In this document: piece after piece, positions 4,644-64,000 of the stretch | Layout: each line of letters begins with the position of its first letter | Numbering within the stretch: position 1 is the first letter of the stretch | DNA from: Eledone cirrhosa | Taxonomy: Eukaryota | Direction: 5' to 3' | DNA: 64,000 nt | Assembly (NCBI GenBank): GCA_964016885.1 | Contig: OZ024742.1 | Span: forward strand, 352,594,001 to 352,658,000 | The notes under the pieces: model-generated | The model's input: the letters and a program-made list of their open reading frames with translations, nothing else | The model's database searches: none | Told to the model about the DNA's origin: nothing | Made by a program: the position numbers and the translations under genes

Positions 4644-4693
<50 letters not shown>

Positions 4694-4709
4694 GATTATT
4701 ATTATTATT
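4644..4709. repeat. (ATT)n microsatellite shared tail-to-tail by a Tx1 (+) and a Dong-like (-) element
   Basis: Read directly from the sequence. Confidence 0.97.
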
Positions 4710-16903: not shown

Positions 16904-16934
<31 letters not shown>

Positions 16935-17110
16935 TTCTTGTTCTTCTTCTTCTTCTTCTACTTCTGCATCTTCTCCTTCTTCTTCTTCTTGTTCTTCTTG
17001 TTCTTCTTCGTATTCTTCTTCTTCTTCTTCTTCTTCTTCTTCTTTTTCTTCTTCTTCTTCTTCTTCTTCTTCTTCTTCTTCTTCTTCTTCTTCTTCTTCT
17101 TCTTCTTCAC
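16360..17110. repeat. Compound (TTC)n/(TCA)n/(TTTTTC)n microsatellite
   Basis: Read directly; it explains the poly-E/K/F/S ORFs in the track. Confidence 0.96.
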
Positions 17111-26084: not shown

Positions 26085-26105
26085 TATTATTATTATCATT
26101 ATTAT

Positions 26106-26230
26106 GAAAGGCAAAGTTAACCTCAAATCCCAACGAGGTTAACTGTGCCTTTCATCCTTACAGGGTCGATAAAATAAAGTACCAGTAATCTACTGGCTAA
26201 TAGCTAGCCTTGTGCTTAAAGTAGAAACAA
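26106..26230 (+). mobile_element. SINE 3' fragment (family of 22012-22200) within an (ATT)n tract
   Basis: caaatccc..gaggtt..gcctttcatccttac..gtcgataaaata..gtagaaacaattatt. Confidence 0.75.
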
Positions 26231-26247
26231 TTATTATTATTATTGTT

Positions 26248-27976
26248 CTTTGAGTCTCAGTCATTGATGTTAGTTAAGTGGTAAGTTTGTTGAAATGAAT
26301 ATCAAACCTGCAGCCTCAGATATTCAGGACGTATAGGAGGGTTCTTGCTGTTCCCAGCAATCATGCCTTTTGAAGTGTTCCAAAAAGCGGGGCGGGGCCA
26401 ATTTTCTTTAACCATCCCTGGAAACCTTTTGAGATAGTACCTAGTGCGCCTATGACAATCAGGACCACTTTGATTTCATGGCAGTTCAAATCGGTTTTAC
26501 CTCCCACTTTAAGTCCTGGTATCGGTTAATTTTCTCTCTCTCCTTCTCTTGTCTTGCAATCTCGTGTCAAATGGGCAGGCCACATCCACAATCAGGCACG
26601 ATCTTTTTTCCTTGTCCAAAACCACCAGGTCAAGTCTATTGTGTTCCAGTTTCTTGTCCGTCTGTATCCTAAAATCCATAGCACCTTCACCTGATCGTTT
26701 TCTATCACCGACTCTGGTTTATGCTCATACAACTCAGAATGTGGTAAATTGTTTACTTTGCATAGGTGCCAGATCACCCTGCCCATCACATCATGTCTCC
26801 AACCTTTATAGTGAGTTTGGGCTAGGTGTTTTAAGTCGGATACAATGGGAGCTACAGTCTAATCTCTCTCTCCACAGATCCTGCACAGTGGGCTACCCTC
26901 CTCCTTGCAAATATGGTGTTTCAGCCACTTCGTTTTGAGGGCCTGCATTCGTTTTAGCATTCCTTCTGTATCCTTTTTAATGTCTCTTTTCAAACAGTTC
27001 CATGTCTGTGGATCTCTGAATTCATTTTCCTCAAAAAAGGTACTATGAAGGGATTTTCCTGAAGGCTGCTCTTTCTCCTTGTTGTTAATTTCTACTTGAA
27101 AATCTCCTGGTCTATTGTCCTCTCCTTCAGTACAATTCTGAGCATTGACTCCTTACTATCGGTCACGTATTTGTGTAGGTTGTTTTTCTCCATCTGAACA
27201 CAGTCCTCTAAGCTTATAAGACCTCTTCCACCTTCAGATCTTCTTAAATAGAGTCTATCGACATCACTTCTCTTGTGGAACATGTTGTAGATAGTCAATA
27301 GCTTCCTAGTCTTCCTATCGATTTATTTTTGTTCAGCAACATTCCATCTTAGAATTCCCGCACTGTACCTAATAATAGACACAGCTCGGGAATTTAGTGC
27401 ACTTATGGCATTCCTACTGTTCAGATGTGACTTTAATACGCTCCTTACTCTCCGAATGTATTCAGATCTTATCAATTCCTTCATTTTTGTGTTATTGATG
27501 TCATAAGCCTCCAGAGTACCTAAATACTTGTATCCTTCTTCAGTGTCAATTTCCTATATCATCTCACCTGTTGATACCTGGATTCCGTTGCTCCCGCTCA
27601 ATTTATCCATCTTCATCACAAGGACACTAGACTTACTAATACCAAATTGCCTACATATATCATTGCTGAAAATACGGACAGTGTCAACTAGCACTTCCAA
27701 CTCCTTCTCACTCTTCCCGAAGAGCTTAAGGTCGTCCATGAAGAGGAGAAGATTGATGGTAAGCTCTCCCTTTCCCAACTTGTATCCTGCTCTCACTTTT
27801 CGCAGTATAATGGTCAGGGGCACCAGGACAAGGACAAACAACAGACGGGACAGACTATCTCCCTGGAAGATACCTCTCTTGATCTTCACGCCCCCCAAGG
27901 ATTCTCCAGCTGATGTTAACTTTGTTTTCCATGACTTCATACTTTTACTCAACAACTGTCTGATGTTATCTGCCAC
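26248..27976 (-). mobile_element. R4/Dong-like family X, 5'-truncated, decayed
   Basis: RT 27554-27976, RLE remnants, family-X 3' end next to (ATT)n, with (TTA)n on the 5' side as well. Confidence 0.92.
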
Positions 27977-27997
27977 GTTATTATTATTATTATTAAA

Positions 27998-28951
27998 CCT
28001 GGAGACTGGAATGTCTTCAGGCGCTCACAGCCCTCGACCAATCGGGCAATGTGATCGGTGGAAACTCCAACTCGGCGTACTTTAGAGGATTAGTGGAGGG
28101 GAAGAGCGACGACGTACATGGGGAAAATCTAGGCGTCGACGAAAATCAACTAGCCAATCTCTTAGGAAAAACTTTCGGGCCGGGATCTATGGACAACTTC
28201 CAGAAATCTCTGGCCTGGCAGTGCTACCGAGGAGCCTTTCCAGTTCGGGATAAACTCTACAGGCATGGAGGTGCCGTCAGCCGAGCATGTCCGAGATGCG
28301 CGCAGGGCGATGAAACCGTCCTGCACGCACACGTCCAGTGTCCGAAAATTGCTGACTTGTGGGTTTATGTCGAACACCTGCTGTCGCGTGTAGGACGGAT
28401 CCAGCTATCATCTGAGTCAATCGTGGGGATTACCCTGCCCTCCTCCGTTAACCGGGAAGGGCAGGCAGTTTTTATCTGTCTGGTGGCCATGGCGAAAGAG
28501 ATAGTATGGTGGACAAGTTTGAAAGGGCTGAAGACGAGCACTTACCTCTTCGGTGATGCCCTGATTGACTTTTTCAAATTTCATTTGAAAATGAAAATCA
28601 GAGTAGAGAGGGAGGTGCTCTCTTCCCAGCATTTTGTTGAAAGATGGGTGAGAGAAGCAAGAATGGCCCGAGTGAATGGGCCTACTCTGAGTACGTATCT
28701 GTAAATTAAAGGTGGAAACTGGGAGAGGGCACTTGCCTTGGTCGTCAGGGTCACTGTGGCCTTTTATTGGACTTTCTCCACAAATGTTCCTCCGAAGTCT
28801 CCCCACTATTGGGGAATTTTTCATTGTTATTTTTTTGTTACATCCTCTATTTTTGTTTTTTACACGCAGAAATGCCCATTTTTACCGTGCTGTATTGTCC
28901 TACACTGTCCTTAATGTCTACTTTATGTAAACCTTTGTGGTTAATAAAGAA
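27998..28951 (+). mobile_element. 5'-truncated Tx1 copy (A-type 3' end) between (TTA)n tracts
   Basis: ORF 28051-28704 with CPRC..H..C and ARMARVNGPTLSTYL; 3'UTR ends AATAAAGAA. Confidence 0.93.
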
Positions 28952-28994
<43 letters not shown>

Positions 28995-28995
<1 letters not shown>

Positions 28996-31900
28996 AGTTG
29001 CATTTATCTTGCTTTATGTTCATACGAGTTATCACCAAGTCACAACCAGTGACCTCAAGAGACAACAAGGTCCGCCATGTTCAAGAAAGAACATAAATAC
29101 TCACACATGCATCTTTAGTGTTTAGACTTGTGATGTACTTATATTGACAGAATCTTCCTTAGTATATGGGCAGTTGCCATTAGTACTATCTTTTGTATTT
29201 CTCCTATACGCGGGTTTCCTGGGATTTGCGATAAGTAATCATTAGACCCCTTAGGTATCTTCCCAGAGCGCCTACAACCACTGGTATTGTTTTAGTTCTC
29301 AATTTCCACATTTTTCCAATTTCTATCTCCAGGTCCTTATACTTGCTCAATTTTTCAAATGTTTTTATAGATACATTCTTGTCTATTGGAACAGACATAT
29401 CTATTAGCAGGCATACCCTCTTTTTAAAGTCCTTCAATATTATATCAGGTATATTTGCATCTATATTTCGGTCTGTTTGGATACTAAAGTTCCACAAGAT
29501 TGAGATGTGATCTTTTTCATGTATGGGAGGTGGTTGATGCTCCCACCAATTTTTTTGATGGGGCAGGTCAAAATTCTTACACATTATCCAATGTATATAT
29601 TGTGCAGCTCTGTCATGCCTGTTTATGTATTCGGTTGGAGCTATATGACTGCACATTGAAATTATATGGTCAATGGTCTCTGGTTTTGCATACACGGCAT
29701 AATGGGCTGCATCCATTTTTTATTATGTTGGTTTGGTAATTTTTTGTTGGCAGACAATGATCTTGTACTGATATAATCAGTCCTTCAGTCTCCGATTTCA
29801 GTCCAGAGGATGCCAACCACTGGTGAGTTAAAGTTTTGTCAACATCAGGATTGTTAGCTGGTTCTGGGTATTTTCCATACAGAGGCTGTTCTTGCCATTT
29901 CTTAGCCAGTTTCTGTAGCAGTTCTTTCTTTGCAGTTACTTTTACCTGCTTTGCTTTTTCTGAGTTTTCCATTTCAGCAGTAAATGGGACTTCTGAAATT
30001 TGTAGTCTATTACTGTATCTTTGTGCATCTTTTGTAATGGAGTATGATCTTTTGATGCTTTCGTGTTTCAAAACGAGTTTGATCATCCAATCATGTGATT
30101 CCCTTAGATATGTAGATAATCCAATTGTTGCAGTTTTCAACGCAACGTCTAACTGGATTAACCCACGTCCTCCTTCTTTCCTAGGGAGATATATTCTATC
30201 TGTATCTGCCTTAGGGTCATGCATTCTGTGCATGGTTAAGAATTTTCGAATTTTTTTATCGAGCCTACGGATCTCTGTGCTTGACCAGTTGATGACATTG
30301 TAACTGTAGGTTACTACTGGTATGGCAAGCGTGTTTATGGCATCGATCCTATTCCTTGCATTCAATTCCGTACTTAAGATTGCTCTTACTCTGCGGTAAC
30401 ATTCCTTCCTTATCCTTTCCCTCATTGTCGAATGCTTGATTCCGTCTCCTTCACAAAGACCTAGATATTTGTAAGTTTTTTCTTGATCAAGTTCTCTTAT
30501 CACGTTCCCCCGATCAAGATTAATGTCTGAACTCTTCAGCAGCTTACCTCTGGTGAACATTGCTTTGGCGCCTTTATCTAGTCCAAACTCCATTTTAATG
30601 TCATCACTGAACTGCTCCACATTGGATAATAGCCCTTGCAATTGTTCATCATTTTTTGCAAATAGTTTCAGGTCATCCATGTAGAACAAGTGATTAATGG
30701 TTTTGTCATAGACTCTATATCCATGTTTCATTGAGCATTTTACTTAATGGTATAAGTGCGATGCAGAATAAAGGCAGTGATAAAGAGTCACCCTGAAACA
30801 TTACACAGTTAATATTAATTTCTCCAGCTTCCAGTGATTTTGTTTCACTATTCAAAAGGAGTGTCGTTTTCCACGTCTTCATACTGAATGACAAAAACTC
30901 CTGACAACGGGGGATATTTTGAAAATCTCTAAACATTTTTCAATCCAACTGTGTGGCAAACTGTCGAATGTTTTTTTATAATCTATCCAAGCAATTGATA
31001 GATTTGTGTGTCTATCATGACCATCTTCCAGTATCATTTTGTTAACCAGAAGCTGATCCTTACAGCCATATGAGCCTCGTTTACACCCTTTCTGCTCAAT
31101 GGGAAATAGGTCATTTGTTATCAGGTGGTGATATATATATTCAGTTAGGACTGATGTTAAAATTGTATACATTGTGGTCAAGCAAGTTATCGGTCTGAAA
31201 TTTCTGGGATTGTTTGTCTCATCATTCTTCGGAAGAAGGAATGTAATGCCGTTAACTAGCCATGATGGTATCTTTTCTGGCTCCTTAACTATTTCATTGT
31301 AAAGTTGGGCTAACAGCTCATGAGACTCTGTGAAGGCATTTATCCAAACATTTTGTATTTTGCCTTTTCCTGGGGATTTCCATTTGCTGGTCTTTCTAAG
31401 AGCTCAACGCAACTGTTCAACTGTTATATTTTCCCATATTTGTTCTTCAAGGTGAGCTGTATCTTTCATTTGTCTGTCTGTCCATGGGGCATGTATGTTA
31501 TGAACTTTTTCTTCGGACTAGATCTTTTTCCAGAATTCTTGCACTTCCTCCTTGGGTTGTATTGATTGACCAATTGTTGACTTACCAATTTTTCTGTAGA
31601 AGTTGTTTTGGTTGTTTTTGAACATTTTATTGTCCTTATAGAATCTATATCGTTTTTCAAAGCGCCTTATACGAGCAGCTTTGGCAGACACTTTTTGCTT
31701 CATTATTTCTATCAGCATGTCTATGTCACTTGTTGATTTTATACTGTACTTTCTTTTCAATTTTCTAAGATTAGTTTGTTTAACATGTTCACCTACTTTA
31801 TAGTTTGTTAAAATTTCTATGTCACATCGGAGAAGGTTTATTTTGCGATTGATGTTCTCTTGCCAAGTAGATTTCTTGTGGGAATTCCTTTGTGTTTTCA

Positions 31901-32274
31901 TCTTCACTCCACATAAGTGAGTGGTGACTTTAGAGATGATTTGAATCAGTAATGTTTAGTTTGTTTGTGATGATAATGTTTTTGAGAATTATGTTAGTCT
32001 TGTGTATTATCTTTTAGTTCTGTTTGGAGTTCTGGATCTTAGGGAGGGTGTCTCGTTGCCCCATGTCAGATTCTTTCATTTTCATCCATTCGATCATAAT
32101 TTCATCCTTCAAGTTGGCAAGTTCATTCTCATTCATTTCTTTATCATTTACGATCTCATTATTTTCATTTGGTGTTTCATCTTGAGCATCCACTCCCTCC
32201 ACTTTTTCGATCCTTTCTTTAATTTGTTCTGTTGCCAGTGATTCCGCCCCAACCCTGGGATTCGAAGTGTTACA

Positions 32275-32277
<3 letters not shown>
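28995..32277 (-). mobile_element. R4/Dong-like RLE retrotransposon, family Y, 5'-truncated, frameshifted
   Basis: EQKGC, QGDSLS, YMDDLKL, YKYLG, CRVC..H..C, PDIILKD..IDMSVP..EK..KY. Distinct 3'UTR; (TTA)n on both sides. Confidence 0.93.
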
Positions 32278-32310
<33 letters not shown>

Positions 32311-32323
32311 AATTATTATTATT

Positions 32324-35300
32324 CCTTGAATCTCAGTCATTGATGTTAGTTAACTGGAAAGTCCGTTGGAATGAATATCAAGCCACAACCCTCAGCCTCA
32401 GATATTCAGGACGTATCGGAGGGTTCTTGCTGTTCCCAGCAAGCATGCCTTTGAAGCATTCCGAAAAGCGTGAAGGGGCCGATTTTCTTTAACCATCCCT
32501 GGAAACTTTTGGAGATAGTCCCCAGTGCGCCTATGACAATCGGGATCACTTTGACTTCATGGCAGTTCCAAATCCTTTTTACCCCCCACTTTAAGTCCTG
32601 GTATCGGTTAATTTTCTCCCTCTCCTTCTCTTGCACTCTCGTGTCGAATGGGCAGGCCACATCCACAATCCTGACACGATCTTTTTTCTTTGTCCACAAC
32701 CACCAGGTCAGGTCTATTGTGTTCCAGTTTCTTGTCCGTCTGTATCCTAAAATCCCACAGCACCTTCACCTGATCGTTCTCCATCACCGCCTCTGGCCTA
32801 AGCTCATACCATTTCTCAGAATGTGGTAAATTGTTTACTTTGCACAGGTGCCAGTGGATCACCATACCGTCACATCATGTCTCTAGCCCTTATATTGGGT
32901 CTGGGCTAGGTAGTTTACTCTCGGATCCAATGTGAGCCACAGTCTCCTCTCTTTCTCCACAGATCCTGCACAGTGGGCTAGCCTCCTCCTTGTAAATATG
33001 GTGTTTCAACCACTTCGTTTTGAGGGCCTGCTCCTGCGCAGCCATTAACATTCCTTCTGTAGCCTTTTTAAGGTCTCCTCTTCTCAACCAGTTCCATGTC
33101 TGTGGATCTCTAAATTCAGTTTTCTCAAAGAAGGTACTATGAAGGGATTTTTCCTGAAGGCTGCTCTTTCTCCTTGATGTTATTTCCTCCTTGGACATCC
33201 CCTGGCCTATTGTGCCCTCCTTCAGTACAGTTCTGTGCATTGGCTCCTTACTATCAGTCACGTATTTGTGTAGGTTGTTTTTCTCCATCTGAACACAGTC
33301 CTCTATGCTGATAAGACCTCTTCCACGCTCAGATCTCCTTAGGTAGAGTTTATCGACATCCCTCCTCTTGTGGAACATGTTGTAGATAGTCAATAGCTTC
33401 CTAGTCTTCCTATCCATTTCTTTTTGTTCAGCAACATTCCATCTCAGAATTCCCGCAGTGTACCTAATAATAGACACAGCTCGGGAATTTACTGCGCTTA
33501 TGGCATTTCTGCTGTTCAGATGTGACTTCAATACGCTCCTTACCCTCCGAATGTATTCAGTTCTTAACAACTCCTTCATTTGTTTGTTCTTTATGCCATC
33601 AGCCTCCAGAACGCCCAAATACTTGTATCCTTCCTCAGAGTCAATTTCCTTTATCATCTCACCTGTTGGTATCTGGATTCCGTTACTTCAGCTCAACCTA
33701 CCCCTCCACATCACAATGACTCCACACTCACTAATACCAAACTGCATACGTATATCACTGTTGAAAATACGCACATCCAACTCCTTCTCACTCTTCCCGA
33801 AGAGCTTAAGATCGTCCATGAAGAGGAGGTGACTGATGGTAAGCCCTCCTTTTCCCAACCCCTATCCTGCTCTCACCTTTTGCAGTACACTGGTCAGGGG
33901 CATCAGAGCAAGGACAAACAACAGAGGGGACAGGCTATATCCCTGGAAGATACCTCTCTTGATCTTCACGCTTCCCAAGGATTCTCCAGTTGATGTCAAC
34001 TCTATTTCCCAGTACCTCATACTCTTGCCCAACAACTGTCTGATGTTATCCGCCATCTTGAAGATCTCCAGGCTTTTTGTGATCCAAGAATGAGGCAGCA
34101 TGTCAAATGCCTTTCTGTAGTCTATCCATCCCATGGCAAGATCAGTGTGTCTCCTCCTGCAATTCCCCATTACCATCTTATCAATAAGTAACTGGGCCTT
34201 TGTACCACGTGACTTCTTTCGGCATCCTTTCTGTTCGTCCGGTAACAAGCTGTTTGTGTGGAGGTGATGTTAGATTTCCACAGACATTATTCTTGTCAAC
34301 AGTTTCCACATTACGGACAGACATGTAATAGGTCTATAGTTGGTAACATCATTACCCTTCATTCTGTCTTTCATTATCAGAACTGTGGTACCTTTTGTCA
34401 ACCACTCTGGTACCTCACCTGACATCAAGCAGTCATTGAACATGGTTGTCAGTTTCGGGTGGAGGGATGTTATATTTTTAATCCAATACCCCTGCACACC
34501 ATCTGGGCCTGGTGATTTCCAGTTGGTTAGTTTGTTGGCCTGCCCCTTAATAGTTTCAACTGTGATACACAAATCAGTCTGTTGGTGTGCCTGCTCACCG
34601 ATCTCCCACTGTACTGTCTCAATCCACCCTGCCTGGTCATTATGTCTAACATCTTGCTCCCATATTCCTCTCCAGAATGTTTTAGTTTGTCCGCCACAGG
34701 GATCAATTCGTTGCCTCTTTCTTTCCCCTCAAGCTGTCCAAACAGCATCTTCTGGTTGTTGTCGAATATGCGGTTCTGTTTATACTGACTGACTCTGTTC
34801 TCGTATCGCCTGATTTTTGCACTCTTTGCTACAATGCGTTGCTTCAGTTCCTCTATGATAATATTTAGTTTTTTGCTCCTAGTTTTGTACTTTATTTCCA
34901 GTCTATTTTTAGTGCCTATGTTTTTTAGTGTCCCATTCAGTATTGACTCAAGCTTTCCAATGTCATTTCTCATTTCCGTGATTTGACCTCTCAGTCGCTT
35001 CTTCCACCAAGGCTCTGCTCTTTCCTGTCTGTTGTTTCCTCACGCTTTTATACCAAGTAGTTTCCTCACCGTATTTGCTGTTGCTTTGAGGATATTGTTG
35101 CACTGGTGAAGGCTCCTCGCCTCAAGGTATGGGATGACTTTGTTTACCTTAGCTGTGTTTTCTTTTAACTTTTTCCTGTCTACAAATCTTAGGTTCATAG
35201 GTCTCCCACTATCATTGTTCAATTCATCTACCACTAAATTTAGGATGTCAACCGAATCTTGTCCTAGCCCGTCAGCATTCATCTCCTCAGTGGCCGTATC

Positions 35301-36925
35301 TCTGTTCCAGGTATTATTTATCTCAGTATTCAGATCATTGTCTGCTTTGGGTGGTTCCTCCGTTCTCTCGATCTCTTCACTTTTATTTCCCACTGGCTCG
35401 TTTGCCTGGCATACTCCACACTCCATCTCCAAGCTAATCTCTCTGCTCAGTTCCTCCAGTTCCAGCTCGCTTATCCACCCATTAGTTCTTATTACCCGAG
35501 CCTGCCCGGCCAATTTTTTTCATCTAATTTAAATAGACCAATCTCGTTCCAGATGTTATGCATCCGTCTCCTATAGCCCCTCTCCTTGGGGTTACTTTTC
35601 AGGTAACATTGCATAACAGTTCTATTCAATTCTTTCGTCCAGTTCGTTCTGGTCCCTTTCCTTCTTCTTCTTCCTCCGACACCAGCAGTATTGGTTGACA
35701 GCCAGGTTCCTGCTGCTGAGCCAGGGAGCACCTGCTGGGTGAGAGTCTGTCACATGTCGTTCTCGTCTCCATTTCACCGTTATTCGAACTGTTTAGGTTC
35801 GATATTTAAACACTCTTATCGAGGATTGGCGAATGTATGGTTACATAACCATCTGTGGATTCACCGTCTCCGGTGGTTGCGTCGCTCCACTTGGCTCTTG
35901 TGTGGAATTATCAACACGCTGTAGACGAACACAAATAAACAAACAAACAAACAGGCAGAAAAAAACCTAAAAATGAATAAGCATAAGTTTCATTGTAATG
36001 TACTGTTCGAATGTCTGACTTAGTTTTTCCCTTCTCTTCTCAGTCTGTCCGCTTGTTTCTCTCTTCATTCTTATTTTCTTTACGTTTTTTTTGTTTTTGT
36101 TTTTCTCTGTGTGTTTGTTTTTTGTTTTTTTGTTGTTGTTGTTGCTGTGCTGCTTTGGTTTTGATTTTTGTTTTTTTTTCTTTTGAGTCTATCTATATAT
36201 TTTGATGCCTTCCTCTTTTTTAGTAGGAATTCTAAAATGTGGTGGCAGTGCTGTGCTAGCAGCAACTAGCAGGAAGCAATGGGAGAGAATAGCGGCGGTA
36301 GCGATACTGAGACAGTGGTGGTGGTGATGTCGATAATGAGGCAGTGGTGGTGGTGATGTGATCGTGTTTCTGTAGTGATGGTGTTGTAGCGGTGGTAGCA
36401 ATGAAGGAGTGGTGGCGGCGGTGTTGGGATAGTGGTAGTAATGGTGGATGGGCGGCGTTGTCGTTACTGATGTCCGTTCGGTGAATTTATGGGGTTAGTC
36501 GCGTACATGTGTTGACATAAATTCTCTTAATGTTGGAATTAAACATTTTGTTAAAACTTGGGACAATAATAATAGTATTTATTATTATCATTATTATGTT
36601 GAGATTGGTTGTGGTGGTGGTGAAGTTGCCGTTATCAGTCTGCTGTGTTTAGTGTAAGCAGAGAAGTGATGGGGTAGGTGGTGTATCTAGTTTCTGGTGT
36701 TGGTGAGATTGGTGTTGTTTGGCTGTTCTATATAGTATAGACAGAGGAGGGGGGTTCTTCTTCTTCCATTTATAGCCATTTTCTTTTCTTGAATATACAA
36801 TGTACAATACAAAGTTGAATATTTGAATATTTGAGCCTTATAACAATATATTTTGGGTCCGAATTTTTTTGGGGCTCAAGCCGGATGCTTTACGTAACAT
36901 TTGTACTAAGAGTTGTTATTTCACA
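32324..36925 (-). mobile_element. R4/Dong-like family X, apparently full length (~4.6 kb), frameshifted
   Basis: N-terminal WTKELN..VMQCY..GYRRRM domain, RT, CCHC, RLE. The ~1.2 kb leader ends in the same terminus that recurs at 38537-38774; (ATT)n on both sides. Confidence 0.93.
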
Positions 36926-36949
36926 ATTATTATTATTGTTATTGTTATT

Positions 36950-38774: not shown

Positions 38775-38826
38775 ATTATTATTATTAATATTATTATTAT
38801 TATTACTATTATTATTATTATTATTA

Positions 38827-39312
38827 CAGCTGCATTTATCTTGCGTTAAGTTCATACGATTTATCACCAAGTCACAACCAGTGACCTCAAGAGACAACAA
38901 GGTCCGCCATTTTCAAGAAAGAACATACATACTCACACATGCATCTTTAGGTGTTTAGACTTGTGATGTACTTATATTGACAGAATCTCCCTTAGTATAT
39001 GGGCAGTTCCCATTAGTACTATCTTTTGTATTTCTCCTAGACGCGGGTTTCCTGGGATTTGCGATAAGTAATCATTAGACCCCTTAGGTATCATTCCTAG
39101 GGCGCCTACAACCACAGGTATTGTTTTAGTTCTCAATTTCCACATTTTTCCAATTTCTATCTCCAGGTCCTTATACTTGCTCAATTTTTCAAATGTTTTT
39201 ATAGATACATTCTTGTCTATTGGAAAGGACATATCAATTAGCAGGCATACCCTCTTTTTAAAGTACTTCAATATTATATCAGGTCTATTTGCATCTATTT
39301 TTCGGTCTGTTT
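38827..39312 (-). mobile_element. Family Y, short 5'-truncated copy
   Basis: RLE C-terminus (38972-39271) and the same 3'UTR as at 28995; (TTA)n on both sides. Confidence 0.93.
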
Positions 39313-39384
39313 ATTATTATTATTATGATTATTATTATTATTATTATAATTATTATTATTATTATTATTATTATTGTTGTTATT

Positions 39385-42215: not shown

Positions 42216-42221
<6 letters not shown>
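39385..42221 (-). mobile_element. Family X, 5'-truncated, least decayed copy
   Basis: ORF pieces 41067-42146, 39741-41054 and 39459-39728 are nearly contiguous (RT, CRIC..H..C, RPD nuclease). Confidence 0.95.

Positions 42222-42290
<69 letters not shown>
42222..42290. repeat. (TTA)n spacer; others at 27978, 28952, 32278, 36926, 38775, 39313, 47796, 52984 and 59004
   Basis: Read directly; nearly every element boundary from 26 to 59 kb carries this repeat. Confidence 0.97.

Positions 42291-47794: not shown

Positions 47795-47795
<1 letters not shown>
42291..47795 (+). mobile_element. Tx1 element type A, both ends present, decayed (copy A1)
   Basis: Type-A 5'UTR and ORF1 with stops (knuckle CFRCGSKTHLRAFC); ORF2 has deletions near 44775 and 45283. 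Confidence 0.95.
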
Positions 47796-47852
<57 letters not shown>

Positions 47853-52983: not shown

Positions 52984-53222
52984 ATTATTATTATTATTAT
53001 TATTATTGAATGCCATGGTTGACGGAGGCTCGGCTCTGTAAGGTATAGTAATTTTTAACCGTTAAAACAATTGTAAATTGTTTAAAACTTGAACCAAATT
53101 GTTGATAAAGACACCCTCCTCCTCGTGAGAGGGGTCTTTCTGTCCGTTATTTGGCCCTTCGGGGTTAAATAACCAGTTATTGGGGTTTTGTACCCAAAAT
53201 TTCATTTTAAACAAAAAACAAC

Positions 53223-55286
53223 ATGGCTACAAAAAAGAAATTTCATACGTCACTCCCACTCATTCCGTCTTCTTCTTCCTCAATCATCACTACAGCAGAG
53301 AGAAGATTGTCTATCTCCCTCCCTTCTTTAAATGTGTCTCTCTCCCTCCCTTCTCTTTCGCAAGTGACGAAAGAAAAGAAAAGTCTCGTGCAAAGCGTGC
53401 AAGGTTTCTCCACGACGACGACGACAGCGACGAAACAGGTGTGCGGGAAATACGAAAACCCAGTTCATTCGTCTGACGTCAGGAATAATAGCAGTAGCAG
53501 CCGTAATAACAACAGCAACAGTGACAATGAAAACAACAGTAGCAGCCGCAACAGCATCACCAGCAACACCAACAACAACCACAGCAACAGCGGCGGAGGC
53601 AGTAGTCGTAGTACCTGCAGCAACAACAAAAGTACCAGCAGCTCTGACGACAACAACAACAGCAGAGAAAAACCAATCTCATTTGCAGGTATTGCGAAAA
53701 ACTTGGAAACAATCCTCATAACCAATGAGGAATTAGAGGAAGCGAAGAAGATGGTGACAGAGAACGGACACCGAGCAATCTGCAAGGCAGCGAAAAATTT
53801 TTTCGAAACCCAAGAGCACTGTACGGTCACGTACCGTACAGTAAGTACAAAATCCCGTAGGGTGGAAAGAGCCACAGAGGCCCAAATACAAAAAGCCTTG
53901 GGGTCTGTGTGGCAGAGGAAAACGCACATCACCCGAGGCAAAAAATACGCCACCGTAGACGTACTTTTTGCCACACCCCAGGAGGCAAAGGCCCAATCAG
54001 TAGTGACCCTAAGGAGCGAGGAAATGGTGTTGGTGCCCTCCTACTGCGGGCAAAAAATTGTGAGGGTCAAACTGACCCACGTCCCCCCCGGAATGACCCC
54101 TTCTTGGCTGGCCGCGTCTGTCCTCGTCGGAATCGAGGACAAAACAACTGTACTGCAAGTACAGAAAAAAGTAAGAGAAGATTGGGTCGGCTCCTCCATT
54201 GAGATGCTAATCCAAACCAACCAGGAGTGCATCGAAGCTATCCCGGATGTGATAGACTTCGATAACGGCACTCAACTGCCCATAAGTGTTGAGGGCAAAC
54301 GCCCGAAATGCTTTCGCTGTGGATCGAAGACTCACCTCAGGGCCTTCTGCAACGAGAAGACCCTGAGAAAGGAGAAAACCCCCCTCCTTCCGAATCCGGC
54401 TCCACGGCTACCAGCAACATGACAAGCGGCAACCAGGAACGATAGGTCCGTGGCACCCATACCCACTCCACGGAAATCAAAGACAGCAGCAGTGGAAATA
54501 TTAACAACAACAACAGCAATACCAAATGCAGCTGCAACAGAGACTCCAGTGCAAACATCACCAACAACAACAAGTGAAAGAGTGGAGCTGGTACCCCTCC
54601 CCGACCTTACAGAATCAGACATGGAGTGTGAGGTGGGAGAGGGATGGCAAAAGGTCGCAAGAAGGCACAAACGCAGAAGCAGCGCATCGTCGCCTTTGAA
54701 AAGGGAGGAAAGAAATGAGAAAAGGGTAAAGTCTACTGCAAAAAGATCCACAGCAGCAACACCACCAACACCATCACCACCCACACCAGCACCACCATCA
54801 CCACCGGCGACAACCCTACCGCCAACAACACCTTCAACACCACCACCACAAGCACCAACATCGCAAACACAACAACAAAACACACACACCCAGCAACAAC
54901 GACAAGAAAACAGCAGAACCACACCCCACCCCCAGAAAAACAAATGCACGGCAATAAACACACACAACAAGAAACTAATGACTTACATAATTGAACACAC
55001 AGACATTTCACAACAGGACTACATAATACCAGCACCAATCAAAACGCCAACTAACATAAGACTGCTAAAAATAGCACAGAAACAATACACAAACATTAAA
55101 ACGAAATTCCCCAACGCAGTTGGTGATTTCAGGGACCTAGGAGGAACCATCAATCGAAGAGTATATTCAGACATTCTCTTAGAAGAGCCGACGACCAGCC
55201 GAAGGGACGATTCAACGGTCCCTTCACCAGACGATCAAGTGAAAAGGGATGTAAAAACCATCACTCCTCTACCAAAAGTACGATAA
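53223..55286 (+). pseudogene. ORF1 type A (~687 codons; RRM-like core, CCHC knuckle, Pro/Thr-rich linker) with a single premature TGA at 54420
   Basis: 53223-54422 and 54450-55286 are in one frame; copy A1 has GGA at the homologous codon. Confidence 0.88.
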
Positions 55287-55321
55287 GTGGTCTTTCCCAT
55301 CTTTTCCACTCTATTTTAAAC

Positions 55322-58300
55322 ATGACCTCACTCAGAATAGGCAGCATAAATGCGCGTGGCTTGGGGTCGTCGTGGAAGCAGGGTCACCTGCTCAACGACC
55401 TCAGGTCACTAAACATAGATGTAGTGGCCATCAGCGAGACCAGAATCTCCGAAGCACGGGCCTTCGCACCGATCTTCGGCGGCTACGATGTGTACGCATC
55501 TCCCAGCCGTCCTGGATCGGGTGGAGGAGTTGCTGTGCTTTTTCGGAGAGGTTTGGATCTCGCCATACGGGCCATCTTCCTGGACCCAGAGGGTAAGCTG
55601 GTGGTGCTGGACGTGACCAGCGGAGACGGGCAAGCTTTCAGGCTAGTGGCCGTCTATGCCCCGACAGGAGCAGGGCGGCCTGATTTCTTCCGGCGTCTGG
55701 AGACCTTTCTTGGAACGTCCCGCTCTTTAGTGTTAGTGGGCGACTGGAACGGGATCTTAGATGCACGCTGGGACTGTGTGGGATTAGCGGATAGGGGTGG
55801 AGGGTGCAAGAGCCTCACCAACCTGCTCAGGCGTTTTGAACTGTCTGACAGGTACCGATTGGATTTCCCGAATGTGCCAATGTGGACTTGGACAAACCGC
55901 ATAGGGTCATCCAGATCATATCTAGATAGAGTATTTTGTAGGGAAATAGATAGGTCTAGCATAGGCTGTCCACAATTCAAAATAGTCAGCTACACGGACC
56001 ACAAATTCGTGACCTGTGTGCTTGACTTAGATAGGCTTCATAGACGAGGACCCGGCTACTGGAAGCTAAACGCGTCCTTACCAGCGCGCAAGGCCTACAG
56101 AGACCGGATTAGCGAACTAGTTAAGCGGGCGTTGACGGGGGCCATCGTCAACAACAAGTGGTGGTTTGCTCTGAAAAGAGCGATTAGAATAGAATCGATT
56201 AGGTTTAGTAAGGCTTTAGCAATAGAGAAAAATAGAGCAGAGGGAGAACTAGTTAGAAAATTAGACGAGGCGCTTAGCAAAGGCATTGCGACCGACGTGC
56301 TTGCGGCGAAATTGGCCCTTGACCAATTCTTCAATGCAAAGCACAAAGGCTGCGTTGTCAGAGCTAGGGTGCGTGCTCTCAGACACGAGGGGACGAAAGC
56401 CGTTCAATGGGCCCGAGTGGCGGAGGCGCGTCGTGGCAACAAAGCCACGATCCGGTCTTTGGTGGACCACGACGGGCGCATGCTACTCGATCCCGGGCAA
56501 ATGTGTGAAGCTTTTCAGCGACACTTCGCTCAGCTGTTCGGGGGCAGCGGGGGGCCGGGTAGAGGGATGGACTTTAGTGTCTACCTCGACGGACTGCCGC
56601 GGCTCTCGGCCACTGAGGCGAAGTGTTGCGAAAAGCCGATAACAGCCGCTGAAGTACGGGAGGCAATGACTGGCTGCACAAGGGGTAAATCGCCTGGTTT
56701 GGATGGTCTGCCCTATGAACTTTACGTACAGATGCCAGACTTGTTCGGAGGCCTCTTGGCGGACGTCTACTGCAACTGGCAACAGAACGGGAGAATTCCC
56801 AGTTCTGTGAGCCGAGGAGCGGTGGCACTGCTGAGAAAGGATCCGAACAAGGGGGATAACATAGACAATTTCCGGCCCATAACTCTGCTAAACACAGAGT
56901 TTAAGATTTTGGCCAAGGTGCTAGCAAAGAGGTTGGCGCTTGTCGTTGGTGGTCTGGTGGGAGAGGCGCAGACATGCGCCATTCCCGACAGATCCATCCA
57001 CGACAACCTCCACCTCATGCGATACATCGTAGAGAGGGTAGCTAGGGAACCTGGCACGGGTGGGTCCTTGATCAATTTAGATCAGTCGAAAGCTTTCGAT
57101 AGGGTCGACCATCGTTACCTAGCGGCAGTCCTGAGGGCGGCTGGCTTTGGGCCCGTCTTCAGAGGCTGGATCGCTGCCATGCACAGCGACATCTGCTCTG
57201 TAGTGAGAGTGAACGGTCACCAGTCGGAACCGTTCAACATCATGCGCTCGGTCCGCCAAGGATGTCCCCTCTCGTCCCTCTTGTACGTATTGACTCTCGA
57301 GCCATTACTGCACAAACTGGAGACGTTGAGGGGAGTCCCGCGCGAACTAGGATGCGGAAGATCCGTGTCAGCATATGCGGACGATGTCACCGTAGTGGTG
57401 TCGAACGCCAAACACATCGAGGCGATCGGCACTACACTAAGAGAATACGAAGCGGTGACAGGAGCAATGATCAACCAGGAAAAGTCAGTGGGCCTGCAGC
57501 TCGGCACCTGGAGAGGCAGGTCCATGCCGTCCAACAGCGTCGTCGGGCGCTGGACGGACGGACCGGTTAAATTGCTAGGGGTCTGGTTCGGTCCGGACCT
57601 CCAGACAGACAAAAACTGGGACGAGGTGACGAGCAGGGTGGCTTCTCTCACCCAGAAATGGGCGGAGAGGAAGCTATCCCTGAAAGGTCGAGCGGAGGTG
57701 GCTAACGCGTACATCGCGTCTGTCATCTGCTACCGCCTAACCGTCGTACCTTGTCCTAAGCCTCGCCTGACTGCGCTGGAGCGTTTGCTCTTTCGCTTTT
57801 TGTGGAAGGGTCGTGCTCCGATGGTCAGGCGGTCCATCTGTTGTCAACACCCGCTACGTGGAGGGCTGGGCATGCCGTGGCTGATGATGCGCAGGCACGC
57901 GCTCAGGCTACGACATCTCCACCTCTTCCTCGACGGTGATCAGGTGTGGTCGCCGTTTGCTAGACGCGTTTTTCCCCAGCTCGTTTCCTTGACGGAGCTG
58001 CAGTCCTGGGTCAAGCGAAGACCGAGAGGGAGCGCCTGGAGACTGGAATGTCTTCAGGCGCTCACAGCCCTCGACCAATCGGGCAATGTGATCGGTGGAA
58101 ACTCCACCTCGGCGTTCTATAGAGGATTAGTGGAGGGGAAGAGCGACGACGTACTTGGGGAAACTCTAGGCGTCGACGAAAATCAACTAGCCAATCTCTT
58201 CGGAAGAACTTTCGGGCCGGGGCCTATGGACAACTTCCAGAAATCTCTGGCCTGGCAGTGCTACCGAGGAGCCTTGCCAGTTCGGGATAAACTCTACAGG

Positions 58301-58741
58301 CATGGAGGTGCCGTCAGCCGGGCATGTCCGAGATGCGCGCAGGGCGACGAAACCGTCCTGCACGCACTCGTCCAGTGTCCGAAAATTGCTGACTTGTGGG
58401 TTTATGTCGAACACCTGCTGTCGCGTTTAGGACGGATCCAGCTATCATCTGAGTCTATCGTGAGGATTGCCCCGCCCTCCTCCTTTAGCCGGGAAGGGCA
58501 GGCAGTTTTTATCTGTCTGGTGGCCATGGCGAAAGAGATAGTATGGTGGACACGTTTGAAAGGGCTGAAGACGAGCACTTACCTCTTCGGTGATGCTCTG
58601 ATTGACTTTTTCAAATTTCATTTGAAAAGGAAAATCAGAGTAGAGAAGGAAGTGCTCTCTTCCCAGCATTTTGTTGAAAGATGGGTGAGAGAAGCAAGAA
58701 TGGCCCGAGTGAATGGGCCGACTCTGAGTATATATCTGTAA
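55322..58741 (+). CDS. ORF2 polyprotein: APE endonuclease, reverse transcriptase, C-terminal CCHC finger (Tx1/L1 clade), 1139 aa
   Basis: SINARGL, ISETR, VYAP, GDWN, YLDR, TDH; GPGYWKLN; SPGLDGLP, FRPITLLN, KAFDRV, RQGCPLS, YADD; CPRC..ETVLH..C. Confidence 0.97.
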   Translation: MTSLRIGSINARGLGSSWKQGHLLNDLRSLNIDVVAISETRISEARAFAPIFGGYDVYASPSRPGSGGGVAVLFRRGLDLAIRAIFLDPEGKLVVLDVTSGDGQAFRLVAVYAPTGAGRPDFFRRLETFLGTSRSLVLVGDWNGILDARWDCVGLADRGGGCKSLTNLLRRFELSDRYRLDFPNVPMWTWTNRIGSSRSYLDRVFCREIDRSSIGCPQFKIVSYTDHKFVTCVLDLDRLHRRGPGYWKLNASLPARKAYRDRISELVKRALTGAIVNNKWWFALKRAIRIESIRFSKALAIEKNRAEGELVRKLDEALSKGIATDVLAAKLALDQFFNAKHKGCVVRARVRALRHEGTKAVQWARVAEARRGNKATIRSLVDHDGRMLLDPGQMCEAFQRHFAQLFGGSGGPGRGMDFSVYLDGLPRLSATEAKCCEKPITAAEVREAMTGCTRGKSPGLDGLPYELYVQMPDLFGGLLADVYCNWQQNGRIPSSVSRGAVALLRKDPNKGDNIDNFRPITLLNTEFKILAKVLAKRLALVVGGLVGEAQTCAIPDRSIHDNLHLMRYIVERVAREPGTGGSLINLDQSKAFDRVDHRYLAAVLRAAGFGPVFRGWIAAMHSDICSVVRVNGHQSEPFNIMRSVRQGCPLSSLLYVLTLEPLLHKLETLRGVPRELGCGRSVSAYADDVTVVVSNAKHIEAIGTTLREYEAVTGAMINQEKSVGLQLGTWRGRSMPSNSVVGRWTDGPVKLLGVWFGPDLQTDKNWDEVTSRVASLTQKWAERKLSLKGRAEVANAYIASVICYRLTVVPCPKPRLTALERLLFRFLWKGRAPMVRRSICCQHPLRGGLGMPWLMMRRHALRLRHLHLFLDGDQVWSPFARRVFPQLVSLTELQSWVKRRPRGSAWRLECLQALTALDQSGNVIGGNSTSAFYRGLVEGKSDDVLGETLGVDENQLANLFGRTFGPGPMDNFQKSLAWQCYRGALPVRDKLYRHGGAVSRACPRCAQGDETVLHALVQCPKIADLWVYVEHLLSRLGRIQLSSESIVRIAPPSSFSREGQAVFICLVAMAKEIVWWTRLKGLKTSTYLFGDALIDFFKFHLKRKIRVEKEVLSSQHFVERWVREARMARVNGPTLSIYL

Positions 58742-59001
58742 ACTAAAGGTGGAAAACTAGGAGAGGGCACTTGCCTTGGTGGTCAGGGTCATTGTGGCTT
58801 TTTACTGGGCTTTCTCCACAAATGTCCCTCCGAAGTCTCCCCCCTATTGGGGAATTTTTCATTGTTATTTTCATTGTTATTTTTGTTACATCCTCTGTTT
58901 TTGTTTTTTTACACGCAGAAATGCCCATTTGTACCGTCCTGCATTGTACTGCACTGTCCTTAATGTCTACTTTATGTAAACCCTTGTGGTTAATAAAGAA
59001 A

Positions 59002-59042
<41 letters not shown>

Positions 59043-62000
59043 GGCGACCTACGTAGGAAATCGTATTATCGTGAGCTCCGCAAAGGTTTGTTATTTCCGT
59101 TTGTTTAAAAATTGCCATTTATGGAAAATTTTATTGTAAACTGTTTATAAGCACACATACATTGTTTTCCGAAAAGGACACCCAAAAAGATTGGGGCCTT
59201 GTGCCCAAAATTTTAACTTTTATTATTATCCAAAAATTTCTTTGAAAAAAAATGGCTAATTCCCCTCTGCACGAAGCAGCTGAAAGCCTTCCTCACAAAA
59301 TAACACCTCACACCGACACCACCATTGTAAATGTTACTACGTTTGCCAACACAAAAAAAAATATAAGCAGTAGCAATATTTTAAATTTGTCTCAGGCAGA
59401 CATTCATTTCCCGCCATTACCAATGACTGCAGGTGTTAAACCCTCCACCACCACCACCACCGCGACAACCACCACCACCACCACCACCACCGCGACAACA
59501 GAAACAAAAGAAGAAAAAAATAAATTAACTCGTGACGTCGAAATGAAATCAAGCAAAATGGACTCTTCCCCACCAAAGACGACTGACGTCACAACCACCA
59601 CAACTGAAAATAAAATTAATATTAACGATAGCAACAACAACAACAATGACATTATAAAACCGACCCTCAGTTTCGCCATCGTAGCAAAACAATTCGAAGC
59701 GTTCACGGTAACCCAAGAAGATTTAGAAAATGCCAAACAAATGGTAAAGAAAGATGGGTACAGGGTCAGCCTCAACCCCCCCCCCCCCCCCACCTAATAA
59801 AATGGAGCATCGGCGCCTGTGCACCGTGTCGTATAGAACAATAAATGTAAAATCGCGCCGAGTGGAACGGGCATCCGAGTCCCAAATCCAAAAAGCTTTG
59901 GGACATGTGTGGGCAAGAAAAACCCACATCAGACGTGGGCAAAAGTATGGAACCGTGGATGTGTTCTTTGAAACTCCAGAGGAGGCTAGAGAACACTCCA
60001 TGACCCCATTAAAAAGTGACGACCTCACACTCGTCCTAAGCTATTGTGGCCAGAGACTCGTAAAGATCAGGGTGACCCACGTTCCACCGGCCATCGAAAT
60101 TCCCTGGCTAATAGCGGCTGTCCTCACCGGCATCGAAGCCAACACGAAAATAATAGCAGTAGCAAAAGAAAAGCAGGAAAACTGGTCCGGATCTGGGATG
60201 GAGCTCCTGATCCAAGCGGACCAAAAAAGCATTGAGGAGATCCCAGAGGTAATAGACCTCACTGACGGCAGCCACCTCACGGTAATTGTCGAGGGCAGAA
60301 GACCTAGGTGTGTCGTTTGTGGTGAAGGAACCCACCTAAGGGCTTTCTGCCCTCAGGCTAAAAGGTTGAGGCCACCTCTCCTACCCACCCCAGTGACAAA
60401 ACCATCAACACCACCAGTAGCAGAGATGGCAGCAACAACTGTAGCAGCAACAACAGAAGCAACTATAACAGCAACAACCCCAGCAACAGTAGCAAAACCA
60501 ACACCACTACCACCACCAGCAAAACCAACACCACCACCACCCAACGCTTCAGAACTAGCACCAGCGCCTACACCATCCACCACACCACAACCAAAACTAA
60601 CGGCTGTGGAAGATTTTCCACTCCCCGGCCTATCACAACTGGAGACAGATTGTGACGACGAGGAGTGGGAAACGATATCCGGAAAAAAAAAAGAAACCAA
60701 AAAAGAAAAAATTCTCTTCCTTCCCCCTCCAAAAACAAATTACAGAGGGAAACAAATAAACTAAGAAACAAAAAAGTTAGGACAGATATGCCACCATCCA
60801 CACCAGCATCACCAACCCCATCAACCCAAACACCAACACCATCACCATCATTATCCCCAACACCACCATCACCTACACCACAAAAGTCATCAAAATACGA
60901 AACAGAAACAAACCCACAACAAACGCAAACAAAACAAAACAACCAAAACGATACACACTACACAGCATTAAATTTGAACAACAAGCAATTATTACACTAC
61001 ATCCAACACAACACCAGCATCACAGAAAAAGACTACACAACAACCCCAAAATTCACACCACCTCCACACATACAAATCACTCGCATCACACAGAAAACGT
61101 ACATGACACTAAAACAAAAATTCCCCAAAGACATCGGAGACTTCCGACAAGCACTCTCCAGGAGGATTTATAAGGACATCCTTCCTGAGGAGGCCACAAG
61201 CAGTGAAAAGGATGGAAAAGCCGTCCTTCCCCTAGGAGAAGTAAGGTAAGTGGTCTTTCCCATCTTTTCCACTCCTTTTCAACATGACCTCACTCAGAAT
61301 AGGCAGCATAAATGCGCGTGGCTTGGGGTCGTCATTGAAGCAGGGCCACCTGCTCAACGACCTCAGGTCACTAAACATGGATGTAGTGGCCATCAGCGAG
61401 ACCAGAATCTCCGAAGCACAGGCTTTCGCACCGATCCTCGGCGGCTACGATGTGTACGCATCTCCCAGCCGTCCGGGATCGGGGGAGGAGTTGTTGTGCT
61501 TTTTCGGAGAGGTTTGGATCTTGCCATACGGGCCATCTTCCTGGACCCAGAAGGTAAGTTGGTGGTGCTGGACGTGACCAGCGGAGACGGGCAAGCTTTC
61601 AGGTTAGTGGCCGTCTATGCCCCGACAGGAGCAGGGCGGCCTGATTTCTTCCGGCGTCTGGAGACCTTTCTTGGAACGTCCCGCTCTTTAGTGTTAGTGG
61701 GCGACTGGAACGGTATCTTAGATGCACGCTGGGATTGTGTGGGATTAGTGGATAGGGAAGGAGGGTGCAAGAGTCTCACCAACCTGCTCAGACGTTTTGA
61801 ACTGTCTGACAGGTACCGAATGGATTTCCCGAATGTACCAATGTGGACTTGGACAAATCGCATAGGGTCATCCAGATCATATCTAGATAGAGTATTTTGT
61901 AGGGAAATAGATAGGTCTAGCATAGGCTGTCCACAATTCAAGATAGTCAGCTACACGGACCACAAATTCGTGATCTGTGTGCTTGACTTAGATAGGCTTC

Positions 62001-64000
62001 ATAGACGAGGACCCGGCTATTGGAAGCTAAACGCGTCCTTACCAGCGCGCAAGGCCTACAGAGACCGGATTAGCGAACTAGTTAAGCGGGCGTTGACGGG
62101 GGCCATCGTCAACAACAAGTGGAGGTTTGCTCTGAAAAGAGCAATTAGAATAGAGTCCATTAGCTTTAGTAAGACTTTAGCAATAGAGAAAAATAGAGCA
62201 GAGGGAGAATTAGTTATAAAATTAGATGAGGCGCTTAGCAAAGGCATCGCGACCGACGTACTTGCGGCGAAATTGGCCCTTGACCAATTCTTCAATGCAA
62301 AGCACGAAGGCTGCGTTGTCAGAGCTAGGGTGCGTGCTCTCAGACATGAGGGGACGAACGCCGTTCAATGGGCCCGAGTGGCGGAGGCGCGTCGTGGAAA
62401 CAAAGCCACGATCCGGTCTTTGGTGGACCACGACGGGCGCATGCTACTCGATCCCGGGCAAATGTGTGAAGCTTTTCAGCGACACTTCGCTCAACTGTTC
62501 GGGGGCAGTGGCGGGCCGGATCGAGGGATGGACTTTAGTGTCTACCTCGACGGACTGCCGCGGCTTTCGGCCACTGAGGCGGAGTGTTGCGAAAAGCCGA
62601 TAACAACCGCTGAAGTACGGGATGCAATGACTAGTTGCACAAGGGGTAAATCGCCTGGTTTGGATGGTCTCCCCTATGAACTTTACGTACAAATGCCAAA
62701 CTTGTTCGGAGGCCTCTTGGCGGACGTCTACTGCAACTGGCAACAGCACGGGAGAGTTCCCAGCTCTGTGAGCCGAGGAGCGGTGGAGCTGCTGAGAAAG
62801 GATCCGAACAAGGGGGATAACATAGATAATTTTAGGCCCATAACTCTGCTAAACACAGAGTTCAAGATTTTGGCCAAGGTGCTAGCAAAGAGGTTGGCGC
62901 TTGTCGTTGGTGGTATGGTGGGAGAGGCGCAGACATGCGCCATTCCCGACAGATCCATCCACGACAACCTCCACCTCATGCGATACATCGTAGAGAGGGT
63001 AGCTAGGGAACCTGGCACGGGTGGGTCTTTGATCAATTTAGATCAGTCGAAAGCCTTCGATAGGGTCGACCATCGTTACCTAACGGCAGTCCTGAGGGCG
63101 GCTGGCTTTGGGCCCGTCTTCAGAGGCTGGATCGCTGCCATGAACAGCGACATCTGCTCTGTAGTGAGAGTGAACGGCCACCTTTCGGAACCGTTCAACA
63201 TCATGCGCTCGGTCCGCCAAGGATGTCCCCTCTCTCCTATTGTACGTATTGACTCTCGAGCCATTACTGCACAAACTGGAGACGTTGAGGGGGGTCCCGC
63301 GCGAACTAGGATGCGGAAGATCCGTGTCAGCATATGCCGACGATGTCACCGTAGTGGTGTCGAACGCCAAACACATCGAGGCGATCGGTACTACACTAAG
63401 AGAATACGAAGCGGTGACAGGAGCAATGATCAACCAGGAAAAGTCAGTGGGCCTGCAGCTCGGCACCTGGAGAGGCAGGTCCATGCCGTCCAACAGCGTC
63501 GTCGGGCGCTGGACGGACGGACCGGTTAAATTGCTAGGGGTCTGGTTCGGTCCAGACCTCCAGACGGACAAAAACTGGGACGAGGTGACGAGCAGGGTGG
63601 CTTCTCTCACCCAGAAATGGGCCGAGAGGAAGCTATCCCTGAAAGGTCGAGCGGAGGTGGCGAATGCGTACATCGCTCCGTCATCTACTACCGCCTGACC
63701 GTCGTACCTTGTCCTAAGCCCCGCCTGACTGCGCTGGAGCGTTTGCTCTTTCGCTTCTTGTGGAAGGGACGCGCTCCGATGGTCAGGCGGTCCATCTGCT
63801 GTCAACACCCGCTACGTGGAGGGCTGGGCATGCCGTGGCTGATGATGCGCAGACACGCGCTCAGGCTCCGACATCTCCACCTCTTCCTCGACGGTAATCA
63901 GGTGTGGTCGCCGTTTGCAAGACGCGTTTTTCCCCAGCTCGTCTCCTTGACGGAGCTGCAGTCCTGGGTCAAGCGAAGACCGAGAGGGAGCGTTTGGAGA
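59043..64000 (+). mobile_element. Tx1 element type B, young, runs off the window end (copy B2)
   Basis: Type-B 5'UTR; ORF2 from 61284 nearly identical to A2, with small indels near 61483, 63236 and 63677. Confidence 0.96.
59252..61249 (+). pseudogene. ORF1 type B (CCHC knuckle CVVCGEGTHLRAFC), two frameshifts at homopolymer runs (could be sequencing errors)
   Basis: Pieces 59252-59797, 59754-60764 and 60665-61249 switch frame at a long C run (~59776-59791) and A runs (~60683-60710). Confidence 0.85.

Follow-up and report, generated by a model that had tools for sequence, protein, structure and literature searches.

A mixed array of Tx1-like and Dong-like retrotransposons lying in opposite orientations among (ATT)n tracts of the octopod Eledone cirrhosa

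Introduction

How do two classes of retrotransposon with different endonucleases come to lie in one and the same simple repeat, each always in its own direction? The question is raised by a 64-kb stretch of the Eledone cirrhosa genome (contig OZ024742.1, positions 352,594,001 to 352,658,000; the whole of it is called the window hereafter), of which the part from 26085 to 64000 is an array of long interspersed elements (LINEs) separated by (ATT)n tracts. Five Tx1-like LINEs of the apurinic/apyrimidinic endonuclease (APE) type (T1, A1, B1, A2 and B2) stand there on the + strand and six Dong-like LINEs of the restriction-like endonuclease (RLE) type (X2, Y1, X3, X4, Y2 and X5) on the - strand, and each of the 12 (ATT)n tracts found between 26085 and 59042 reads ATT on the + strand. 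On balance, we lean towards seeing in this a mixed LINE array made by insertions of different ages, in which the Tx1-like family likely targets (ATT)n, its priming being predicted on (AAT)n, the strand opposite to the one for the Dong-like elements.

Parts of this picture are already known, i.e., the (TAA)n target of Dong, the opposite polarity of two elements on one repeat, and the targeting of microsatellites by Tx1 elements. In most insects, molluscs and cnidarians, Dong has (TAA)n as its target (PMC7998251), which is the target that the first-pass annotation of this DNA had given for it. It was equally right on Tx1-clade families having other microsatellite targets: Kibi, Koshi and the crocodilian Tx1 families insert into (TC)n, (TTC)n, (TTCC)n and (TTTC)n, target specificity being accepted in that work when more than 20% of the genome-wide copies are flanked by one target type (PMC4494074). 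In Bombyx, TRAS1 and SART1, both of the R1 clade, enter one simple repeat in opposite insertion directions (PMC7265360). Among the octopods, Octopus vulgaris has abundant Dong-R4 elements, with recent activity of both Dong-R4 and L1-Tx1, and the available main text of that study gives no target analysis for either (PMC13282606). The part likely to be new is an (ATT)n-associated octopod Tx1-like lineage, inserted opposite to Dong, at one locus.

Results

Polarity is fixed throughout the window, as had been claimed from a first inspection: every Tx1-like copy that adjoins a tract has (ATT)n on its sense strand, and the Dong-like copies have (TAA)n on theirs. Tx1-like copies touch a tract with five of their six 5' ends and five of their six 3' ends, and Dong-like copies with seven of eight 5' ends and all seven intact 3' ends. 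The four full-length Tx1-like 5' junctions read ATT|G without exception (4/4), in agreement with the single phase previously noted for them. On the 3' side, AATAAAGAA is followed by 3 nt and then by (ATT)n, in one register, at five of six ends, with the tract beginning 6 nt past AATAAA, and no poly(A) is present at any of the six Tx1-like 3' ends in the window. T0, at the left edge of the window, ends in AATAAAGAAA with no ATT tract after it. Truncated Dong-like 5' ends (X1, X2, X5, Y2 and Y1) read TAA|, and the truncated copies T1, X2, X5, Y1 and Y2 have a tract on both sides; the earlier statement that truncated copies are flanked on both sides thus applies to these, but not to T0b (at 3719) and X0 (at ~7480), which lie outside 26085-64000 and lack a 5' tract. 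One of the 5' tracts belongs to truncated T1, which has no Tx1 element as its neighbour upstream, and this supports targeting of the repeat itself.

Self-comparison gives the element order of the array as SINE (short interspersed element), X2, T1, Y1, X3, X4, Y2, X5, A1, B1, A2 and B2, and 13 (ATT)n tracts stand at element junctions in the window as a whole (one at 4644-4709 and 12 in 26085-59042). The features are as follows (ORF, open reading frame; RT, reverse transcriptase).

1-3718, + strand: T0, decayed Tx1-like copy with a B-type ORF1 end and a deletion in ORF2 (10 stops in 1017 codons)
3719-4643, + strand: T0b, from a diverged Tx1 subfamily (16-27% in ORF2), truncated at the 5' end and with an internal deletion
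4644-4709, + strand: (ATT)n tract
4710-7480, - strand: X0, 3' part of a Dong-like family X copy, with an internal duplication and a 5' end without tract
24020-26085, - strand: X1, Dong-like copy of family X with a 5' truncation at TAA| and a lost 3' end
26085-26103, + strand: (ATT)n tract
26104-26229, + strand: SINE 3' fragment (a fuller copy is at 22016-22200)
26230-26244, + strand: (ATT)5 tract
26245-27977, - strand: X2, 5'-truncated Dong-like family X
27978-27994, + strand: (ATT)n tract
27995-28951, + strand: T1, 5'-truncated Tx1-like copy, tract on both sides, three extra bases at the 5' junction
28952-28993, + strand: (ATT)14 tract
28994-32276, - strand: Y1, of a second Dong-like family, Y (33-52% amino acid identity to X)
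32277-32323, + strand: (ATT)n tract
32324-36925, - strand: X3, longest family X copy (4.6 kb), with a leader of ~1.2 kb and a single broken ORF with RT and C-terminal CCHC/RLE
36926-36949, + strand: (ATT/GTT)n tract
36950-38774, - strand: X4, a 240-bp X3 head fused to an X5-like 3' half
38775-38825, + strand: (ATT)n tract
38826-39310, - strand: Y2, 5'-truncated family Y
39311-39384, + strand: (ATT)n tract
39385-42219, - strand: X5, family X copy with a truncated 5' end and 2 stops among 919 codons
42220-42290, + strand: (ATT)23 tract
42291-47795, + strand: A1, Tx1-like, 5' type A, the most decayed of the four long copies
47796-47852, + strand: (ATT)19 tract
47853-52983, + strand: B1, Tx1-like, 5' type B, with an internal deletion
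52984-53007, + strand: (ATT)8 tract
53008-59003, + strand: A2, full-length Tx1-like copy; ORF1 region with a CCHC knuckle and one stop at ~54420
59004-59042, + strand: (ATT)13 tract
59043-64000, + strand: B2, Tx1-like, 5' type B, extending beyond the window end

Could the link with ATT be accidental, a loosely AT-preferring L1/Tx1 family having landed in a tolerant repeat hotspot? Transposable elements of octopus are indeed unevenly spread, with 288 hotspots (PMC13282606), and the sample is small. Against this stand the single phase at 4/4 full-length 5' junctions and the state of the flank between 7.5 and 24 kb, where none of the 31 other microsatellite tracts (16 AT, 7 AAG, 5 AC, 2 ATC and 1 AGAT) holds a Tx1 or Dong piece, the 16 (AT)n tracts included, nor does the sole (ATT)4 of that flank. 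Since these other microsatellites and the flank (ATT)4 are empty, the association does not seem due to chance, and a merely local coincidence is very improbable. The same flank has a 750-bp (TTC)n-type block (a Koshi-type target) at 16363-17108, without insertion, and an old, strongly diverged RT fragment (~25% to a Dong-like protein) at 17705-18219.

The arrangement does recur at 4644, as had been reported, in form of a Tx1-like 3' end, the tract at 4644-4709 and a Dong-like 3' end. This cluster is 16.5 kb from the main array, and since the broken ends of both clusters face the gap it is not safely an independent locus; no convincing terminal repeats were found at either end of the intervening 16.5-kb block. 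X0, in this cluster, has an internal tandem duplication of ~820 bp (5324-6142 against 6145-6962, 94%). In the SINE fragment that opens the main array, the first 21 nt (26104-26124) form a fold-back inversion.

If the array had grown by duplication of DNA, i.e., by tandem duplication or unequal crossing-over of an A-B unit, its Tx1-like copies should have decayed equally. Relative-rate tests with T0 as outgroup give instead 115 against 25 private changes for A1 and A2 (p=5e-15), 107 against 50 for A1 and B1, and 45 against 23 for B1 and B2 (p=0.01), and these strongly unequal ages indicate that the Tx1-like copies were inserted one by one. ORF2 divergence, in addition, differs between pairs (167/2889 against 69/1947, p=4e-4), the deletions are copy-specific, and as many as 64 of the 96 changes between A2 and B2 fall at third positions, which argues that these two came from separate active sources. 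What speaks for duplication is the A-B-A-B order, the resemblance of X4 to a local duplication, and the neutral codon pattern between B1 and B2 (22 of 69 changes at third positions), which taken alone would fit a duplication and is non-discriminating. The relative-rate tests therefore reject the tandem duplication for the Tx1-like copies, for which it is hardly credible, and leave it to X4 only. In the latter, the head differs from that of X3 at 2 of 240 sites, the body is 1.2-2.3% different from X5, its changes following a neutral pattern, and GTT interruptions are shared in the tract, suggesting that X4 is probably a local duplication product. The first count of 11 LINE insertions plus a SINE fragment is therefore right as to the pieces seen, but at most ten of the LINEs would be independent insertions. 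With this correction, relative-rate tests and junction phases together bear out the earlier proposal that two LINE classes inserted sequentially, with opposite polarity, leaving target on both sides.

The Tx1-like family has the architecture of the L1/Tx1 group, i.e., an ORF2 with an N-terminal APE, an RT and a C-terminal cysteine-rich domain. In A2 the ORF2 (55322-58741) is open over 1139 amino acids, with matches to Exo_endo_phos (PF03372), RVT_1 (PF00078) and zf-RVT (PF13966), and ORF2 of the family aligns to human L1 ORF2p over residues 5-855. Its best named match is from Argonauta hians (69%); bit scores are 327 against Xenopus Tx1 ORF2 and 183 against human L1, although identity to the Xenopus Tx1 and fish proteins is only ~29-31%. 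In a quick RT tree, computed without an L1 row, 11 sister rows group with the window ORF2 and two close proteins in a 14-row clade with support 100, which joins Xenopus Tx1L weakly, at an open node of support 80. A comparison of 52960-59130 with four of 24 listed sets of read data, in which the repeats at both junctions were skipped, gave 51,909 matching pieces in one contig run, as of a high-copy family, with the flanks not covered; in two raw-read runs only a low-complexity patch of the segment was covered.

Types A and B differ upstream of ORF2. They share a common ORF2 (~96%) and have unrelated 5' untranslated regions (UTRs; 53008-55237 against 59043-61201), the swap point being ~85 bp upstream of the ORF2 start; sister arrays likewise mix 5' types. 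The ORF1s of both types, 54% identical over 202 amino acids, have the CCHC knuckle CxxC-x4-H-x4-C, and ORF1 has no significant family in Pfam.

Families X and Y seem R4/Dong-like, judging from their ORF motifs and (TAA)n target. Like Dong, family X has a single ORF with RT and the C-terminal motifs CRIC..H..C, RHD and RPD..D..K (CCHC/RHD/PD..D..K in Dong), similar motifs being found in Y, and is bordered at either end by (TAA)n in sense orientation; the TAA| phase at the 5' ends is also found in the junction primer for Dong of B. mori (PMC3774820). Among the 120 homologues listed, none has a name that is informative. The two families differ from Dong in sharing their tracts with an APE element. 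The N-terminus of X3 matches a relative (P0121) from residue 54. Rfam and a simple motif script found no hepatitis delta virus-like ribozyme at six 5' ends, including those of X3 and Y1, in copies that are decayed. The X3 leader was also considered as a reversed Tx1 5' end, and it has no similarity outside X4 and simple repeats.

Array-forming relatives are sister families at 41% identity in ORF2, with 88 matches in animal-looking, microsatellite-rich contigs inside a bacterial metagenome-assembled genome (G001), contigs which are likely host contamination. Their copies, mostly intact, stand in head-to-tail arrays, up to ~11 per contig with a period of ~6.4-6.8 kb (contigs C3-C19, loci L055-L090 and L093-L114), with several 5' types, and may represent an undescribed array-forming Tx1 lineage. 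They also lack poly(A), AATAAA being followed by an array-specific spacer of 11-17 nt; the habit of forming arrays and the missing poly(A) thus look common to the lineage. At the three array 3' ends seen, the spacer runs on into the unique flank (3/3), so that it looks like a duplicated target; the lone outer 5' flank seen matches the spacer only in part, which leaves room for an element-encoded end. Since these spacers are non-repeat and without ATT, the ATT link looks derived in the octopod family.

Discussion

Several points weigh against targeting of (ATT)n by the Tx1-like family. Orientation alone is weak evidence, having a chance of 1/32 for five Tx1-like copies. The ATT association is known from one locus; the second cluster may be part of the same array. 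None of the 47 distinct junction contexts of the sister families has (ATT)3, (TAA)3 or a run of ten A within 30 nt. T0b follows directly on the T0 3' end, the two being joined by a short microhomology of A, with no ATT. And if the Dong-like copies are peeled away, each Tx1-like 5' tract might represent the tail of a Tx1 or SINE copy that precedes it.

The last two points suit a family that targets the 3' ends of its own earlier copies, with (ATT)n merely being the Tx1 and SINE tail, later invaded by Dong. Sister families, in their pure head-to-tail arrays (the 88 matches in G001), might self-target too; T0b sits exactly at the T0 3' end, the four long copies are consecutive with the most decayed leftmost, and a dispersed SINE copy (at 22016) has a short ATT tail at its end and no tract upstream. 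However, the 5' tracts of T1 and A1 presently adjoin a Dong-like 5' end, the nearest non-Dong element upstream of T1 is a SINE whose 3' sequence is different, and the insertion point is always within the tract and in phase. Self-targeting is therefore quite unlikely in our view.

Assuming that the repeat itself is the target, its strands may be used as follows. By the geometry of target-primed reverse transcription, (ATT)n in the sense strand of an element implies priming on (AAT)n, from which priming of the Tx1-like family on that strand follows; the Dong-like RLE elements would prime from the (TTA)n strand. The APE would nick the repeat at TpA steps, with AAT^AAT in the bottom strand and ATT^ATT in the top strand, and the product would be ATT|element|ATT with a duplication length that is a multiple of 3 bases. 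The Tx1 RNA would read a few AUU units beyond AAUAAA and anneal only to the nicked (AAT)n strand, so that AUU units, rather than an immediate poly(A), would follow AAUAAAGAAA / AAUAAAGAA in the RNA. Such an RNA end is suggested by the opposite polarity, the lack of poly(A) and the start of the tract 6 nt after AATAAA, taken together. L1 prefers TT/AA, and an L1-like, poly(A)-primed element would accordingly be expected to take the polarity of Dong. Since the TpA step at the junction is present on both strands, pairing of the RNA tail may set the polarity, and is what most likely fixes it. Each insertion would split one tract in two; targets would this way multiply and the array extend itself.

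The same targeting could come about with an APE that is itself strand-specific for (AAT)n, as TRAS1 and SART1 are on TTAGG, which was the mechanism of the first-pass annotation. Endonuclease swaps between SART1 and TRAS1 transfer specificity, and the TRAS1 endonuclease nicks one T-A step (PMC7265360); target choice is stated to be determined mainly by the endonuclease (PMC4494074), and ahead of the SYLD motif the octopod endonuclease has a shorter stretch than most sister rows. In TRAS1 and SART1 the main determinant is the endonuclease rather than RNA pairing, with RNA-target pairing contributing in part in SART1 (PMC7265360), which also counts against the pairing step proposed above and keeps a strand-specific nick as a close rival. 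The symmetry of the TpA step speaks against it, as does the absence of poly(A) at 6/6 ends together with the fixed register after AATAAAGAA, which suggests an RNA 3' end within the tract; on the whole, strand specificity of the APE is unlikely.

Compared with known systems, the Tx1-like family resembles Kibi, Koshi and the crocodilian (TTCC)n/(TTTC)n families in being an APE-RT LINE of the Tx1 group in microsatellites, while their targets are pyrimidine-rich (PMC4494074) and the octopod target would be (ATT)n; it is also a clade of its own, with invertebrate-looking relatives. The entry of two families into one repeat in opposite directions recalls TRAS1 and SART1, which are, however, both APE elements of one clade, telomeric, and with poly(A) used by SART1 (PMC7265360), whereas here an APE and an RLE element share interstitial (ATT)n and no poly(A) is present. 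Insertion-site preference is known to give head-to-tail copies separated by duplicated target, i.e., tandem arrays by double insertion (PMC5932611), to which the present array adds three LINE families of two classes, a SINE and an expandable microsatellite as spacer. No (ATT)n-specific Tx1 family was found in the literature searched, nor is one named in the available text of PMC4640811, PMC8869645, PMC9115989, PMC3747384 and PMC10294476; Repbase, Dfam and Tx1 target lists lie outside that scope, so an earlier description is possible.

If general, the association would add (ATT)n to the list of Tx1 targets, provide an example from nature in which endonucleases of two unrelated classes use opposite strands of one microsatellite, explain some of the LINE hotspots of octopus, and show a change of target specificity between sister Tx1 families. 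The open ORF2 at 55322-58741 is material for asking whether endonuclease or RNA-DNA pairing decides polarity where TpA steps are symmetric. It is hard to refrain from the wider, and clearly tentative, speculation that the octopod Tx1 lineage moved from short unique targets, like those of the sister families that form arrays, to (ATT)n, and that it forms with Dong a genome-wide APE/RLE counterpart of TRAS and SART, building self-extending mixed arrays with polarity set by an RNA read-through tail. If this were true, the RNA 3' end would make the direction of insertion programmable.

Viral contigs gave no relative, and metagenome loci only distant ones, mostly at 21-33% over long matches, in which a repeat scan found no (ATT)n run. 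U2 small nuclear RNA (snRNA) is the target of the Keno type, and profile matches place it at the end of two of eight related loci scanned, where distant Tx1-like relatives adjoin it in a Keno-like manner (L005, 4675-4885; L008, 5815-5977). A short motif, GGCCT(T/C/A)GTGCC, which may point to a possible partnership of SINE and LINE, is common to the SINE 3' end (22016-22200 and 26104-26229), the B-type 5' UTR and the 3' ends of the sister families (L055-L114).

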